DNA from: a virus
Lineage: Duplodnaviria > Heunggongvirae > Uroviricota > Caudoviricetes
Length of the DNA stretch: 11,238 nt
Strand: one strand, 5' to 3'
Virus record (IMG/VR): IMGVR_UViG_2802429224_000011
The notes below the pieces were generated by a model that did no database searches, was not told the origin of the DNA, and saw only the letters and a program-made list of their open reading frames with translations. Below are positions 1,140 through 11,238 of the stretch, one piece after another; the stretch's first letter is position 1; the number at the start of each line of letters is the position of its first letter. The translations under genes and the position numbers were made by a program.

Positions 1140-1718
1140 TTAATTACTGCTAATTGCAATCGCTCTGATTGAGCGTAAATCATCAAGATTATTCAGTTCT
1201 TCCTTCATCTCCCGCTGACGTTGATAAATCTCGTCATTGCGATCGACCTGTGCCTGCGCCATTACTACCGCCAGTTCTTCCAGTTCCGGCATCGACAGTT
1301 TCACCTGTTGATTATTGGCGTCACCCCATGCAAGGGCGGTTCGTGCCGTATCGGATTTCGCCGCCATTACTACCGGATAAAGACGAGCCAGTGAGTCGGA
1401 GCCAGCATTCCAGGTGCGGCCGTTCCATTCGAACGTGAACGGCTGCGCCTCCTGTTCTGTGCGCCACGCCTCGATTTCCATCTTTTTGGCATCTTTTGCC
1501 TCTGCGATAAGTTCGGGCGTGACGGTGAACGGGGCAATTTCACCCCATTTGCCGCTCTGTAACTCTTCCCAGATGCGCTGGCCTGTCGGTGCGGTATCAT
1601 CCTGCATGGCGGTATACAGGACGAATTCCGTTTCACCTTCAAATAACACCTCGCAGTCAACCGCACCATTTTCAAGATAATGCGCGTTTCTGATGCCTTT
1701 TACCGCTCTGATTTTCAT
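1140..1718 (-). CDS. Putative tail fibre chaperone/assembly protein (DUF4376-like), partner of the upstream Stf-type fibre
   Basis: 192-aa ORF starting 13 nt after the tail fibre stop with RBS GGGGAA 7 nt upstream of ATG. Position immediately downstream of a tail fibre is typical for fibre chaperones. Lacks the classical Tfa C-terminal ...W-P motif, so the functional call rests on position and weak resemblance. Confidence 0.55.
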   Translation of the reverse strand: MKIRAVKGIRNAHYLENGAVDCEVLFEGETEFVLYTAMQDDTAPTGQRIWEELQSGKWGEIAPFTVTPELIAEAKDAKKMEIEAWRTEQEAQPFTFEWNGRTWNAGSDSLARLYPVVMAAKSDTARTALAWGDANNQQVKLSMPELEELAVVMAQAQVDRNDEIYQRQREMKEELNNLDDLRSIRAIAISSN

Positions 1719-1731
1719 GTTTTATTCCCCG

Positions 1732-4700
1732 TTACTCGATGCGCACAAACAGGCATGTTAAAGCCCCATTGGTAGCCACGCCGCTGTAACCGGACAGCGC
1801 CATATAACGCCCCGGAAAACTGTAGCTGCCTGCACCATAAACTGTAAGTTGTGCTGAATAGGTGTATGAGCCCGTCTCACTGAACATGGATGCGATACGA
1901 ACCGGCCCCAGACGGGACCCCGGCACCACGTCGCCCAGACCAATTTTTATGGACGTATCACCCGTCTCAGTTCCCTGATATGCCGCCAGTATTGGCACAC
2001 CAACCGCCGGATATTTGTAATATGAGCCTGAGCCCGCCATCCTGGACAACAGGTACGCCAGTGAATCTCCGTCGTAGACAACTACCCGCGATGACATGTT
2101 CCAGCTGTTATCGCTGTCGTTGTACCGGTACTGCATATAGTGAATACAGTGTTCACCCTGATAATACTGGTTGTAACACATCAGGGTTTTAAATTTGCGG
2201 ACTGTGTCAGATTCACTGTTGGCGTACGGGGACCACATCACGTCAATAATGCCGTTAAATTGCGTGGTACCGGTAAGCAGTTGTGATGAATCTGTAATAC
2301 TGACCGCATACCGCCCCGGCGTGACTTTCTTCAGCCATTCAACGAAATCAGACAGTCCCTCAAACGCCAGGGCTTCAGTGCTGGCAAATGCCTGACCAAA
2401 TCCATGCATACCGGACAGCGCCAGCCTGCCCGGTGTACGGTCGCGGATATCGCTCTGGGGTTCCATCGTCGCAGCCGCTTTCAGCTCAAGCTCCGTGCGC
2501 ATGGCTTCAGGTGTGTCCAGTGCCAGTAATGCGCGGGCTTTTTCTGACAGCTGCGCCAGTAAAATCCGGCCCTCTTCACTGAAATAAGGCAGTGTGTTTT
2601 CTTCCGGTGTTATCTGGCTGACAGCCGTTAACACGCCATTAAGCGGCTGTTTACCTGCCAGTGCATTAGTGACCGTTGTCGCAAAGTTCGGGTCATTACC
2701 CAGCGCCGCTGCCAGCTCGTTCAGCGTGTCCAGGGCTTCAGGTGATGAGTCAACCAGCGCAGCGAGCAGTTTGCGGACAAACGCCGCATTGGCTATTTCA
2801 TTACCTGCTGCATCATCCGGTGGTGTTGGCGTGGACGGTGTTCCGGTCAGTGCCGGGCTTTTCAGTGGCGCACGGGTTTCAATCAGCGCCCTGAGTGAGG
2901 CCTCATCAACCTTCAGGTTTTCCCAGCCAACCAGATAACCACCATCTGATGACACCGCGCAACGGTTATAATAAATATGACCATTAACACCGTAATAAAT
3001 AATTATCTTATAGGCATTCTCATCATTCGGGCTGGTTTTAGGTTGTGGCCAGATAATTTCAATAACACCGTTTGTCTGTATGCCAGGCACCACCACATTT
3101 GTGTCCGCAAATACGGCATAACGACCGGGTTTTGCTGTTTTTACCCAGCGGAGAAAATCAGTTCCTGATTTAAATTCTTTTCTGTCGCTGCTGGAAAACA
3201 GGCTCCCGAAGCCGAACATACCAGGAATCGCCAGTCGGCCTTCGGTGCGGTCGTAAATATTCTCCTGTGCATCCTTCTGTGCTGCATTGCCAAGTTGTGG
3301 CGTCAGATTCGTCCAGGTGACCGGGGCGGTGATATTATCGCCACGAACGGTCATAAGAATCCGTCCGTCTTTTCCAAAAAACAGAACCAGCTTTGTTGCT
3401 GTCTGGCTGGTTTTGTCGCCCCAGCCATTATCCAGCCAGATAATTTCTGTTATCCCGGTTGTTTCTTCCGTTTGTGTGGAAAAGGTGTAATACCGTCCCG
3501 GATGTACGTTGTGCGCAGTTTTGGCTATGGTCACCATATCGCGGGCAATAATTGTCGTGCCTCCGGGATTCGTCATTCCGTAACCAAATGCACCAGGCAG
3601 CGCAACACGACCTTCCGTGCTGTCGTAAAGGTCTGTCTGTATGTCCCTTACCGCTGCGCTTTTCAGCTCAAGCTCATTACGCATGGCTTCCACTGTGGCC
3701 TGTGCCAGCAGTGACCGGGCTTTTTCTGACAGCGGAGACAGTGAAGCATTCCCGTCCTGATTAAAGCACAGAAGATTATCCGCCCGTTCTTCCAGATTAC
3801 TGATTGCGGTTAACACGTCACTGAGTGGTTGTTTACCCGCCAGCGCGTTCATGATTGTTGTCGCAAACTCCGGGTCATTGCCCAGCGCAGCTGCCAGCTC
3901 ATTCAGCGTGTCCAGGGCTTCCGGGGACGAGTCAACCAGTGCAGCGAGCAGTTTGCGGACAAATGCCGCGTTCGCTGTTTCCAGACCGGCAGCATCGTCC
4001 GGTGGGGTTGGTGTGGTGGGCGTGCCGGTGAATGCCGGGCTGTCCAGCGGCGCTTTTGTTTTCGTCTCGTCCATGACGGTTTTGACGGCCTTCGGTGTGG
4101 CTGCCAGTTCTTCGCTGTCGTTATCCGTATCACTACAGAGTTGCACCAGGCCTTTTTCTGTCGTGGAAGCATTGCTTCCCTTCAACTCATCAACTATCCG
4201 TTGCGCCTCGTCCCTGTGCTGTTTTGCGCCCTGCTCGCTTTTTGCTGCCGCTTCTGCACTGGCCTTTGCCTCGCCGCTCAGCGTTGCGACTTCACCGAGT
4301 TTATCAACAGCCTTATCGACGATTTTGTCTGCGTCCTTAACGGCCTGCTCTGCGCGAGCCGCATCCTGTGTGGCAGATGATGCCAGCTGTGCCACCTGCC
4401 TTTTATCTTCAGCAACGGCCTCGGCGTTCTGCTGTACGTTATCCGCCAGCGTCTCGCAGTCGCTCTTGATTTGTTGCGCATCAGCGACATGTTGCCCGGC
4501 CTGTCGTTCGCTTTCCGCTGCCGCCTCCGCGCTCTGCTGCGCCTGCGCCACCAGTTCTTCGAACCGCTTAACGACATCCGGTTTTAAATCGCCTTCATCG
4601 AGGGCGGTCAGAAAGTCGTTCAGTGTGCCGGGCTTTGAATCGTCGTAAACCGAAATATCACCAACACAATATTCTCTTTCAATACATGACCGAAGATAAA

Positions 4701-4878
4701 CGTCATATCTTCCGGTCTGAGCCTCAAATGCATATTCTCCTGCCGGCCCCGTCAAAACTGTTGCCACCGTTCTCATAACCACTGCGGATGTATTCTGTCG
4801 GGCTTTCAGAATAATATGGTATCCGGACATGGGGAGTCCCGTGCCATCCGTCAGCACCCCCGAAATTAATACAGACAT
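1732..4878 (-). CDS. Side tail fibre protein, lambdoid Stf-type, with duplicated collar repeats and three tip modules
   Basis: N-terminus MSVLISGVLTDGTG...ILKARQNTSAVV...YDDSKPGTLNDFL matches the N-terminal domain of E. coli prophage Stf proteins such as StfR. A/E/Q-rich helical shaft. Two copies of the fibre collar motif KGLVQL...ATPKAVK / APLxSPAxTGTP(T/S)TPTPP...AALVDSSPEALDTLNELAAALGNDP(E/N)FATT. RBS AGGAA 6 nt upstream of ATG, 24 nt after the D stop. Confidence 0.9.
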   Translation of the reverse strand: MSVLISGVLTDGTGLPMSGYHIILKARQNTSAVVMRTVATVLTGPAGEYAFEAQTGRYDVYLRSCIEREYCVGDISVYDDSKPGTLNDFLTALDEGDLKPDVVKRFEELVAQAQQSAEAAAESERQAGQHVADAQQIKSDCETLADNVQQNAEAVAEDKRQVAQLASSATQDAARAEQAVKDADKIVDKAVDKLGEVATLSGEAKASAEAAAKSEQGAKQHRDEAQRIVDELKGSNASTTEKGLVQLCSDTDNDSEELAATPKAVKTVMDETKTKAPLDSPAFTGTPTTPTPPDDAAGLETANAAFVRKLLAALVDSSPEALDTLNELAAALGNDPEFATTIMNALAGKQPLSDVLTAISNLEERADNLLCFNQDGNASLSPLSEKARSLLAQATVEAMRNELELKSAAVRDIQTDLYDSTEGRVALPGAFGYGMTNPGGTTIIARDMVTIAKTAHNVHPGRYYTFSTQTEETTGITEIIWLDNGWGDKTSQTATKLVLFFGKDGRILMTVRGDNITAPVTWTNLTPQLGNAAQKDAQENIYDRTEGRLAIPGMFGFGSLFSSSDRKEFKSGTDFLRWVKTAKPGRYAVFADTNVVVPGIQTNGVIEIIWPQPKTSPNDENAYKIIIYYGVNGHIYYNRCAVSSDGGYLVGWENLKVDEASLRALIETRAPLKSPALTGTPSTPTPPDDAAGNEIANAAFVRKLLAALVDSSPEALDTLNELAAALGNDPNFATTVTNALAGKQPLNGVLTAVSQITPEENTLPYFSEEGRILLAQLSEKARALLALDTPEAMRTELELKAAATMEPQSDIRDRTPGRLALSGMHGFGQAFASTEALAFEGLSDFVEWLKKVTPGRYAVSITDSSQLLTGTTQFNGIIDVMWSPYANSESDTVRKFKTLMCYNQYYQGEHCIHYMQYRYNDSDNSWNMSSRVVVYDGDSLAYLLSRMAGSGSYYKYPAVGVPILAAYQGTETGDTSIKIGLGDVVPGSRLGPVRIASMFSETGSYTYSAQLTVYGAGSYSFPGRYMALSGYSGVATNGALTCLFVRIE
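2677..2871. repeat. Intragenic direct repeat copy 2 (collar-encoding) within the tail fibre gene
   Basis: About 195 bp, roughly 85-90% identical to 3859-4053 (offset 1182 bp), with perfect runs such as gcagcgagcagtttgcggacaaa and ttcagcgtgtccagggcttc. Also visible as near-identical antisense ORF translations (GSLPSAAASSFSVSRASGDESTSAASSLRTNAA in ORFs 2594..2938 and 3851..4648). Weaker similarity continues to about 2400. Confidence 0.85.
3859..4053. repeat. Intragenic direct repeat copy 1 (collar-encoding) within the tail fibre gene
   Basis: Partner of 2677-2871. Weaker similarity (about 75-80%) continues to about 3590, covering the ELELK...DRTxGR(L/V)A motif. Confidence 0.85.
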
Positions 4879-6665: not shown

Positions 6666-8318
6666 TCACCCCCAGAATGCATCACCATCAGTCATGCGGG
6701 AACGCTGACCAAAATTAATATCTCCCAGATTTTTCGTTACCCTGTCTGCCAGTTGTCCGGCATCCTCGCCGGGCTTCTGAGTGATGTTAAATTCCGCCCG
6801 TATCTGATACGTGGGTTTTACTTCCACCTGGCTGACACTGCCGGGGGTATACTGAAGAGCCGAGAGAGGATCCGAATTACCCTGCCCCTGAACTGCTGCA
6901 GGTAGTCCGTCAATATAGGTGCGGGATTTCTCTTTTATCGCCTTAAAATCAGGTTCTTCTTTCGGCCCCAGCAGAGGGTCGAGAAATGCATCAAACTTTT
7001 TATCGTCATGATTCCAGGGGAGATAACCGCGGGTGTCTTTATAGGCCTGTACAACCTGTTTTGTCAGGTCAGGATTTTGCCTGAGCAGTTCATCAAACCA
7101 TTCACCCTGACCGTTTTTCTGCGCCACTGCTCTCGCCAGCTCCGGCGACCCCATTTTTGCCAGATACTCCAGCACTTCCCGTCGGTCCTCTCGCGGATCA
7201 TCCGCCAGCCCCCACTCAATGGCTTTTTGTGTAATTCCGGCAAGAACTTTTCCAAATTTCCACATCCAGGCAGCCATGTCGATCAGCGCCGGCAGGGCAT
7301 CATCACGAATAAATGCCCGGATTTTTTCCAGCCCACCATTCTTAAACCAGGCCGCAAGGTCATCCGTCACCTGTTGAATATGTGGGGCAAGTTCATTACC
7401 CAGCTGTCCGCTGATTTCATCAATGGAAGAACTCAGAACATTACGGAGATTTGACAGTGCCACATGTCCCTGAACTGCGCCATCAGCCCCTGCCTTTGTC
7501 ACCAGGTTATAGCGTTTCTGCTCACTGATAAGCTCCCGATAAGTTTTCCCTGACAGACGCATCCAGGTCAGAATTTTATTGGCCTCACCACCGAACAACG
7601 CATCTGCCATCCCCGCCGCCTGCTGCTCATTCTCAACCTGCAGTAAGCGATCAAACAAAAATTCGACCTGCTCCTGGTTGTTTTTTCCGGCCATTACGCC
7701 CGCTTTCAGCCCCAGTTTACCGAATACCTCCTGAATGGCTCCTTTGTCCGTGGCACCATTATCATCGTCAAAAACCTTGTTCCGGTATTCCTCAAACAGA
7801 TCACCGATGTTTTCACCGTTTAACCCCATCTGACGGCCCAGTGAATCCCACGCCGCATAGGTTTCATAGTCCACCCCGTAGCTCCGCGCTATCCCTGCAC
7901 GCTCTGCTGTTTCCGAATTCCGGTTCAGTACCGCACTTGCACCTGCTGCCAGCGTAAGCCCGGAACCAACCGAAAGCCCCAGCCCGGTCTTAAGAACGGT
8001 CCCGGCCCACCCTTTCCAGCGAGCCAGACGTTCCGCGCGCGCCAGCTTACGGTTGAATTTGTCCTGCTCTCCGGTGGCATCATGAATTTTTTTACCCAGC
8101 TTTTCATACTGCTTTCGCAGATCAGTAATATTCTGTCCAGCCAGAACGCCAGCCTGAATTTTTCGTTTCAGTACGTCCTGCTGGCGTGTCAGACGAGCCA
8201 CTTCCTGTGTTGCCCCTGATAATCCGTGCTTCAACCCATCAACCGATTTTTTCCACGACGGATCTATCGTGCCTCCGATCCGGATATTCGCTTTAAGGTT
8301 ATCGCCCACCGTTGCCAT
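6666..8318 (-). CDS. Tail tape measure protein (gpT-like), short variant
   Basis: 550-aa protein in the position between E/E' and U. Internal Gly-rich hydrophobic segment (GWAGTVLKTGLGLSVGSGLTLAAGASAVL) typical of tape measure proteins. RBS GAGGAA 8 nt upstream of ATG. Confidence 0.82.
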   Translation of the reverse strand: MATVGDNLKANIRIGGTIDPSWKKSVDGLKHGLSGATQEVARLTRQQDVLKRKIQAGVLAGQNITDLRKQYEKLGKKIHDATGEQDKFNRKLARAERLARWKGWAGTVLKTGLGLSVGSGLTLAAGASAVLNRNSETAERAGIARSYGVDYETYAAWDSLGRQMGLNGENIGDLFEEYRNKVFDDDNGATDKGAIQEVFGKLGLKAGVMAGKNNQEQVEFLFDRLLQVENEQQAAGMADALFGGEANKILTWMRLSGKTYRELISEQKRYNLVTKAGADGAVQGHVALSNLRNVLSSSIDEISGQLGNELAPHIQQVTDDLAAWFKNGGLEKIRAFIRDDALPALIDMAAWMWKFGKVLAGITQKAIEWGLADDPREDRREVLEYLAKMGSPELARAVAQKNGQGEWFDELLRQNPDLTKQVVQAYKDTRGYLPWNHDDKKFDAFLDPLLGPKEEPDFKAIKEKSRTYIDGLPAAVQGQGNSDPLSALQYTPGSVSQVEVKPTYQIRAEFNITQKPGEDAGQLADRVTKNLGDINFGQRSRMTDGDAFWG

Positions 8319-10842: not shown

Positions 10843-11238
10843 TCAGGTATTTTGTGGCTGCTCAGGCCAGCTAATATTGTTGTAAGTGGTCTTATCCGTA
10901 ATAGCGCTGAAATCCATCGCCTGCAGCGATTTCGCGTAAATGCGGTACGCTTTGAGCTTTTCCCTGTCTTCGTCGCTGATTAAACCCAGCAGCAGGTCTT
11001 TTTCCCATTCGCTGGTCATGATACTGACCTGTTTTAACAGTGCGTCACGCTCATCTTCCGCTTTAAGTTTGTAGTCGAAAACAAATTCATCATTGCGGTA
11101 GAACCAGTATCCCGACGCCTCAATGCGACGATTAGCGGTAATATCCGGCAACTCAATCACACTTTTATTTTCCGGGCAGATTGAGGTGATGTCTTTTCCA
11201 ACCCAGACCACTTCGCCAGTTTCAACATAAATAACTTT
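10843..11238 (-). CDS. P2 gpG-like tail fibre assembly protein, 5' end lies beyond the window
   Basis: Reading frame stays open to the window edge (..KVIYVETGEVVWVGKDI..). VIELPDITANRRIEASGYWFYRNDEFV resembles P2 G ([27 protein letters not shown]). C-terminal KAYRIY...D.S......ISWPEQP matches the Tfa-family ending (KYRV.L.RVD.S.....WP..P). Confidence 0.8.
   Translation of the reverse strand, partial: KVIYVETGEVVWVGKDITSICPENKSVIELPDITANRRIEASGYWFYRNDEFVFDYKLKAEDERDALLKQVSIMTSEWEKDLLLGLISDEDREKLKAYRIYAKSLQAMDFSAITDKTTYNNISWPEQPQNT

Follow-up and report, generated by a model that had tools for sequence, protein, structure and literature searches.

A two-joint side-tail-fibre gene of an Escherichia prophage, its probable mosaic origin and its naturally shortened relatives

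The stretch of DNA analysed here, referred to as the window, comprises 11,238 nucleotides of a tailed virus (Caudoviricetes; IMG/VR record IMGVR_UViG_2802429224_000011) and carries on its minus strand, at 1732..4878, a side-tail-fibre gene encoding 1048 amino acids in a single open reading frame. This gene contains two copies of a fibre-shaft joint and is probably a mosaic in which both joints are old and from which a segment of 394 codons is lost rarely, recurrently and in one direction only. Such losses would give rise to a polymorphism in fibre length and knob content, not to a programmed switch. The evidence consists chiefly of natural relatives that are shorter by exactly this segment and whose single joint is chimeric, together with the persistence of the two-joint form among distant orthologues. 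A preliminary description, made from the letters of the window alone, had drawn attention to the repeat in this gene and had proposed that it serves host-range switching.

Architecture of the Fibre Gene

The assignment as a tail fibre gene, already made in the preliminary description, is borne out by matches to PF08400 (E 1.7e-54), PF03406 and PHROG tail fibre families, as well as by more than 115 clusters of full-length orthologues. All parts of the gene lie on the minus strand. The N-terminal anchor domain, phage_tail_N (aa 1-134; 4477..4878), accounts for positions 1-134 of the 134 in the PF08400 profile, and the N-terminus matches that of the "tail fiber protein" in PDB entry 9e7m over 94 aa (E 1.5e-17). 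A further match, to the "collar spike protein" of a myophage (PDB 7kjk, E 9e-8), involves the N-terminal 190 aa. The anchor is followed by an Ala/Gln/Glu-rich segment, read from the sequence as a putative coiled-coil shaft (aa 135-237; 4168..4476), and by the Phage_fiber_2 motif (aa 238-277; 4048..4167; PF03406 E 2.6e-15), which forms a single stretch found only before joint 1.

The two repeat copies, each made up of a joint core and a linker, were delimited by repeat search, by blastn of the gene against itself and by blastp between protein segments; copy 1 (joint 1 and linker 1) spans aa 276-406 at 3661..4053, and copy 2 (joint 2 and linker 2) spans aa 670-800 at 2479..2871. The 393-nt copies are 75.6% identical over their full length. 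An ungapped stretch of 254 nt (2618-2871 versus 3800-4053), returned by the repeat search at a spacing of 1182, is 82% identical, and the 195-nt core (2677-2871 versus 3859-4053) reaches 84.6%, so that the repeat and its spacing are as first described, with an identity at the low end of the 85-90% given then. The weaker similarity noted over about 270 bp beyond the core is present at 62.6% identity, and on the gene-upstream side of the repeat similarity drops sharply, to 24% over the next 100 nt. Exact runs shared in register by the copies measure 23, 20, 18 and 15 nt, the longest two being the perfect runs of 20-23 nt recorded earlier. The significance of the nucleotide similarity is evident from the self-blastn of the gene (E = 1.6e-81), and a scan of all offsets left 1182 as the sole outlier at 0.846, the next best value, 0.528 at offset 810, corresponding to knob B against knob C. 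At the protein level the copies are 74% identical (E 1e-54). The core holds 46 mismatches, 34 of them at codon position 3, and all 12 mismatch types are represented. Because the spacing of 1182 nt equals 394 codons, a deletion between the copies keeps the reading frame.

The term "collar" is merely the label of the preliminary description for the joint. No match to PF07484, "Phage Tail Collar Domain", was found in the fibre at E <=0.01; joint 2 matches the "tail collar fibers gp4" of PDB 9d93 (E 3.4e-11). A family of four 40-nt copies (window 2474-2513, 2705-2744, 3656-3695 and 3887-3926), spaced 231 nt or 77 codons apart within each cassette, encodes PEAMRTELELKAA and PEALDTLNELAAA by hand translation; the joint-and-linker unit therefore holds an internal repeat of a helical motif, which is a possible further site of in-frame recombination.

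Three homologous domains of about 120 aa, termed knobs, occupy most of the remainder and are pairwise 26-37% identical in blastp between protein segments, the comparison by which internal homology was established, since self-blastp of the whole protein showed the diagonal only. Knob A (aa ~411-540; 3259..3648) and knob B (aa 541-656; 2911..3258) follow repeat copy 1, and knob C (aa 801-935; 2074..2478) follows copy 2; all three are delimited by internal blastp and AlphaFold2 (AF2) models, knobs A and B also by the variability profile. The AF2 models, with pLDDT 82 for C plus tip and 69 for A plus B, give A, B and C one common pattern of a strand, a 10-residue helix and four to five strands, with a helix after knob B and after knob C. 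The helix between knob B and joint 2, DEASLRALIETR (2872..2910; AF2 secondary structure), takes the same position after its knob as the first helix of the tip domain does after knob C, and an equivalent knob-helix-joint junction is present in phage Goslar. The distal tip domain (aa 936-1048, ...LFVRIE; 1732..2073 including the stop codon), defined from relatives and the AF2 model, is variable among orthologues, and a tip of about 113 aa ending in ...LFVRIE/A closes all relatives, whether one knob, two knobs or no joint stands upstream.

Segment blastp thus reproduces the earlier layout, in which joint 1, a linker, A and B are followed by joint 2, a linker and C. Two of the interpretations attached to it have to be replaced. 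The supposed tips A, B and C are homologous knobs, the real tip being the last ~113 aa after C, and the supposed fusion of two fibre distal halves is contradicted by cassette 1, in which knob B is followed only by the helix DEASLRALIETR and then by joint 2. As cassette 1 lacks a tip, the gene is not composed of two full distal halves, nor are tips swapped by the deletion.

Shortened Relatives and Mapping of Crossovers

The preliminary description had predicted an in-frame deletion of about 1.18 kb and had suggested that orthologues be compared for forms with one and two cassettes. Both forms occur in nature, and the short ones lack precisely 394 codons and retain knob C and a tip. The fibre of E. 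coli SC418, from a complete genome, has 654 aa, which is 1048 minus 394, with knob C and tip as in the window; the fibres of phage pPE4 and of E. coli STEC313 have 667 aa, which is the 1061 aa of the phage Rac-SA53 fibre minus 394, with a tip that differs from that of the window. Identity between short-form and long-form tips reaches 100%. The record of pPE4 (L001 = PP818812.1) is entitled "Actinobacillus phage vB_Apl-pPE4". In the fibre region this phage shares 94-95% identity with the E. coli phage Rac-SA53 and with the STEC313 prophage; the stated Actinobacillus host looks doubtful.

The single joint is chimeric in the short forms SC418, pPE4 and STEC313 and in those of the contigs L008 and L010, with a 5' side of type 1 and a 3' side of type 2. 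Crossovers, mapped site by site at informative sites, fall at gene nt 966-990 in pPE4 and STEC313, at gene nt 916-940 in L008 as compared with the long L009, and at gene nt 967-1000 in L010 as compared with the long L011, where 56 of 56 upstream sites are of type 1 and all downstream sites are of type 2. L010 and L011 represent one chromosomal locus, with flanks 97.5-98.3% identical, and the switch between them takes place within an identical stretch of 32 nt. The crossover intervals coincide with the longest identical runs: the crossover zone of copy 1 (gene nt 916-1000; 3879..3963, minus strand) holds the 23-nt and 20-nt exact runs, and its partner in copy 2, defined by the informative-site maps and the exact runs, lies at 2697..2781 on the same strand. 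At least two crossover positions combined with two tip types imply at least three events.

Among 5426 complete E. coli genomes, the long form, recognized by contiguity of B, joint 2 and C, is present in 25, and the short form, with Phage_fiber_2, joint and knob C contiguous, in about 25 records (38 at >=80% coverage minus 13 that are long by span). These short-form records were classified by span, and the one checked individually, OkiPb01701 (L014, 1002-3275), encodes a short-form fibre of 757 aa whose coiled coil is 103 aa longer than that of the window. The Ala/Gln/Glu-rich segment thus differs in length among relatives, and the coiled coil appears to be a second, independent axis of fibre length variation. 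Before these counts, a synthetic 619-nt query representing the deletion product had returned 79 records and 93 genomes at >=80% coverage, a result that is ambiguous because long forms reach ~84% via joint 1 and linker 1, and it was replaced by longer queries. Protein searches with C plus tip and with A plus B gave only proteins of <=~450 aa, many of them cut at contig ends, and are unusable as a length census; the ~420-aa proteins that seemed "complete" turned out to be gene calls made at contig ends.

Persistence of the Two-Joint Form

Orthologues were compared in the 120 best protein clusters, at the 90% identity level, of ~8000 homologues. Nearly all measure 1035-1050 aa and are 79-94% identical; the sources are E. 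coli, E. marmotae and Salmonella. The two joint cores carry fixed differences in 118 of the 120 clusters, type 1 reading ...ETKTK directly followed by APLDSPAF... and type 2 reading ...IE[TA]R directly followed by APL[KN]SPAL.... Complete genomes, among them A36, E. coli W and DH5alpha, have the same two-joint architecture, as does phage Rac-SA53. Many NCBI records name these orthologues "shikimate transporter", which is a propagated annotation error.

At the nucleotide level, orthologous joints in five long genes are 91-98% identical for joint 1 and 85-96% for joint 2, and joint 1 and joint 2 are 78-83% identical within each of the five. The higher identity of orthologous (85-98%) than of paralogous joints, together with mismatches that lie mostly at codon position 3, indicates that neither concerted evolution nor a recent duplication has taken place. 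Judged from these comparisons, the two-joint long form is old and stable, having persisted in more than 115 clusters across ~20% protein divergence, and the nucleotide similarity of the joints (about 82-85% in the core) seems to stem chiefly from purifying selection at the protein level.

Variation among 115 long orthologues is distributed unevenly: knob A is conserved, and knob B, the most variable part, is as variable as the tip, with an entropy of up to 1.16 bits. A near-identical knob B (85%) stands directly before a different tip in DUF3751-type fibres of 404 aa. The fibre gene of E. coli STEC711 (L007, 3001-4965), annotated as a pseudogene, follows the window gene as far as gene nt 1962, where knob B ends, and diverges beyond it, which marks another rearrangement point at the border of knob B and joint 2.

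The Joint as a Widespread Shaft Unit

When 1.84 billion cluster representatives were searched by phmmer with the segment formed by joint 2 and linker 2, 18,750 proteins matched at E <=0.001. Between 2 and 13 matched stretches are present in most of the best 150, and by a strict motif count 118 of 148 top proteins have 2-11 joint copies. The spacing between joints is 74 aa in pure tandem arrays, 130 or 268 aa elsewhere, and up to 393-394 aa in the window fibre family, and the joint is a generic fibre-shaft repeat unit of ~74 aa. Its core is present in fibre genes of about 2100-2300 of the 5426 E. coli genomes, P1-like plasmids included.

Fibres with a single joint placed differently relative to the knobs also exist. 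In Goslar gp90, a contiguous knob-helix-joint-linker block aligns with aa 526-814 of the window fibre over 306 aa at 46% identity; a partial protein from Salmonella, P0239, reads N-terminus, coil, knob B and joint 2, without joint 1. The inter-knob motif D.YDRT.GRLA.PG.FG.G is conserved in many fibres. Since the joint is generic and such single-joint fibres are available, the two-joint gene is most simply regarded as a mosaic of fibres having the joint before or after the knob, and the join was probably made at the inter-knob motif.

Proposed Mechanism and Alternative Explanations

In the explanation preferred here, two diverged joints most likely came to lie in one gene when modules were shuffled between fibres that differ in where the joint stands with respect to the knobs. 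The nucleotide similarity of the joints still includes identical runs of about 20-30 nt, and rare homologous recombination at these runs would remove 394 codons, probably through phage recombinases of the Rad52 type acting during replication rather than through RecA. The product would be a shorter fibre that keeps the N-terminal anchor, knob C and tip, retains a single joint and has neither linker 1 nor knobs A and B. Such a deletion, having occurred several times in nature, would account for the coexistence of long and short forms among strains. The direction of the change, which parsimony favours as deletion, is something that we infer, as are the enzymes involved, the low rate and any effect on host range.

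For efficient pairing RecA needs a minimum of 31-34 bp and Red-beta one of 23-27 bp; recombination drops 100-fold at 12% divergence with phage recombinases and 10,000-fold at 4% in E. coli plasmids (PMC3945230). The deletion should be rare, because the core divergence is 15-18% and the longest run is only 23 nt, and the persistence of the long form also argues against frequent loss.

Several points weigh against this explanation. Two different single-joint fibre genes could also yield chimeric joints by recombining with each other; with a phage recombinase the deletion could become appreciably frequent in lysates; and two of the short forms, L008 and L010, derive from draft contigs that end within the fibre gene. 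Moreover, because of its hypervariability knob B may bind something and its loss may matter, which hints at a second ligand-binding site in the long form, so that losing knob B could alter host range.

The first of these points leads to an alternative that we hold to be improbable, though the strongest of the competitors, namely that long and short forms are independent recombinants of single-joint parents of the types N-joint-linker-A... and ...B-joint-linker-C-tip, the short form arising via the joint core and the long form via the inter-knob motif. A knob does stand before a complete type-2-like joint in the single-joint Goslar gp90 and P0239, the motif D.YDRT.GRLA.PG.FG.G is shared across many fibres, and fibre genes are hot spots of exchange between phages and prophages (PMC3945230). 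Against it stand the clean switch within 32 nt at the single locus of L010 and L011 with its nearly identical flanks, the short-form tips that equal long-form tips up to full identity, and the pattern of three crossover intervals and two tip types, which is simpler as deletion from an abundant long form.

The recombination-based host-range switch of the preliminary description, taken here to mean that the repeats are retained for the short-fibre variants they supply at a useful frequency to a lysogen or phage population, a kind of bet-hedging, is considered unlikely. Part of the proposal stands, since in-frame deletion forms exist; chimeric-joint short forms arose more than once, the long form occurs about as often as the short one among complete E. 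coli genomes, the deleted knob B is hypervariable, and kilobase-scale in-frame copy-number heterogeneity in a fibre gene has been tied to infectivity within a phage population (PMC6365445). The switch itself is opposed by the one-way nature of the event and the unchanged distal tip, by the 15-18% divergence of the core and a 23-nt run that lies below the RecA minimum and at the Red-beta limit, by the absence of concerted evolution that would keep the repeats alike, by the persistence of the long form in more than 115 clusters that have diverged by ~20% in protein sequence, and by a window without a recombinase gene, none being found among the open reading frames or the Pfam and PHROG matches of the 10 window proteins scanned. 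A specific version, to which we likewise give little credence, regards the long form as a bivalent fibre, binding through knob B and the tip, with joints similar enough for phage-encoded recombinases to generate short variants at a measurable frequency during lytic growth, resulting in host-range bet-hedging without a dedicated site-specific recombinase. If true, a lysate would be a standing mixture of long and short fibres.

A recent in-place tandem duplication of a fibre segment would produce in-frame direct repeats 394 codons apart, as observed, yet it is very improbable: only ~393 nt of joint and linker are repeated, different sequences follow (A-B versus C-tip, with knobs 26-37% identical), and the copies are 78-83% identical in every orthologue compared, with mostly synonymous differences. 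A falsely joined or duplicated segment, suggested by the position of the window at a draft contig end, can be practically dismissed, as the same architecture recurs in complete genomes, Rac-SA53 and more than 115 protein clusters. Two candidate mechanisms were rejected outright: a diversity-generating retroelement, given mismatches of all 12 types, 34 of 46 at codon position 3, and no reverse transcriptase-like open reading frame in the window (open reading frame list and Pfam scan), and an invertase switch, given a direct repeat, no invertase gene and no alternative exon on the opposite strand.

Prophage Context and Neighbouring Genes

The genes of the window follow the order of a P2-like tail module, that is, sheath, tube, chaperone, tape measure, gpU, gpX, gpD, fibre and a DUF4376 gene, and the fibre gene appears to be the mosaic side-tail-fibre gene of a prophage with a P2-like tail, carried by an Escherichia strain. 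The window forms the end of a draft contig of GCA_002965365.1, and its prophage shares the chromosomal locus yecD-aspS with the STEC313 prophage. The aspS beside the prophage (L003, 12610-14382) is at most 95.9% identical to that of any of the 5426 complete E. coli genomes, so that the host belongs to Escherichia but not to E. coli sensu stricto.

Just downstream of the fibre gene, the DUF4376 gene (1140..1718, minus strand; 192 aa; PF14301 E 4e-16; phrog_1141) encodes a protein that stands next to the fibre in all relatives examined and bears the PHROG label "tail fiber protein"; it would be the assembly chaperone of the fibre. At the other end of the module, on the upstream side of the sheath gene, positions 10843-11211 (minus strand) encode the C-terminal portion of a tail fibre assembly protein of the Caudo_TAP type (PHROG; cf. 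L011). As this chaperone fragment belongs to another fibre set, the window fibre is the second fibre of the prophage. Two fibre-plus-chaperone sets are thus present in this prophage, and Rac-SA53 likewise has two.

The protein in the tape-measure position (6666-8318, minus strand; 550 aa) has weak PHROG tape-measure matches and a strong match to phrog_3654, a family of unknown function; the Pfam scan gave no match for it. At the prophage end, two plus-strand genes with strong PHROG matches encode a glycine-zipper or 17-kDa-antigen-like protein of 170 aa (1-513) and a DUF5384 protein of 181 aa (526-1071), and both are probably phage cargo genes. Their matches are to phrog_1277, with the odd label "DNA methyltransferase", and phrog_1094.

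Implications

That fibre segments are gained, lost and swapped by homologous recombination at conserved motifs is already known in principle, and the present case represents an ordinary route of fibre evolution that reveals no new kind of switch. What it adds is a case at nucleotide resolution of a conserved shaft joint acting as a recombination site within a single fibre gene, with at least three crossover events at identical runs of about 23-32 nt that fit the pairing limits of phage recombinases. Natural pairs of long and short fibres with the same tip offer a ready system for studying the effects of fibre length and of mid-fibre knobs on adsorption and host range. For the construction of chimeric fibres, natural fusion points may be provided by the joint and by the inter-knob motif. 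In the literature searched, no paper was found on the window fibre family or on the Rac-SA53 fibre, and the motif "MDETNR", a fusion point in fibre engineering, gave no match.

Comparison with Known Systems

Lambda Stf and Rac StfR-type side tail fibres, the "prophage tail fibre N-terminal domain" proteins of PF08400, share with the window fibre the N-terminal anchor, the Ala/Gln/Glu-rich shaft, the succession of Phage_fiber_2 and the APLxSPxxTG...LDTLNELAAALGNDP joint, and a downstream gene for a putative chaperone. The window gene differs in its position after gpD in a P2-like module for a contractile tail, where it makes up a second fibre set, in a distal part made of knobs and the ...LFVRIE tip, in having two joints, and in being followed by DUF4376 instead of Caudo_TAP. 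Chimeric Stf proteins have been made by N- and C-terminal fusion (PMC11338833), and exchange of stf between lambda and defective prophages has been described (PMC3945230).

Goslar gp90, a "tail fiber repeat protein" of a virulent Escherichia jumbo phage, resembles the window fibre in its knob-helix-joint-linker block, including ...GWENLKVD..AL..LI..-APL/ADL.SP..TG, whereas it has a single joint, another N-terminus and a very different long distal part. The knob models match domains of the R-type pyocin fibre PA0620 and of the receptor-binding proteins of staphylococcal myophages (phage K gp144 and the phi812 protein) with modest fold scores (below 8); no sequence similarity of these proteins to the knobs was detectable, and a common domain family is at most tentative.

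In Mu (G/Gin), P1 (C/Cin) and p15B (Min), alternative distal parts are likewise carried on one proximal part, and the Phage_fiber_2 region of the window fibre matches Mu gpS (PDB 5yvq/8ju3, E 6e-5). The window has neither an invertase gene nor inverted repeats flanking the fibre, and the change runs one way, by deletion, so that the distinction from invertase-driven switching drawn in the preliminary description is upheld. Five weak inverted-repeat pairs (20-29 nt, 73-81% complementary) were returned by the repeat search, every one of them with one arm or both beyond the limits of the fibre gene, and no pair lies wholly within it.

In-frame gain, loss and swapping of segments by homologous recombination at short conserved motifs has reportedly been demonstrated experimentally for gp37 of T-even phages, in work attributed to Tetart et al. 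(cited in PMC3157838). Those cases concern virulent phages and small adhesin-tip domains, whereas here a prophage and a joint-and-knob cassette of 394 codons are involved and the evidence is comparative. In Enterococcus phage EfV12-phi1, in-frame tail fibre duplications of 1.8 kb show copy-number heterogeneity within a population by long reads, which is linked to infectivity (PMC6365445). The likeness lies in kilobase-scale, in-frame copy-number change inside a fibre gene; the EfV12-phi1 copies, however, are identical, recent and dynamic, whereas the window repeats are old and 15-25% diverged, and loss is the only direction observed. What the window family has in common with systems of in-frame cassette gain and loss is direct repeats that border the cassette and natural variants whose junction lies inside the repeat.

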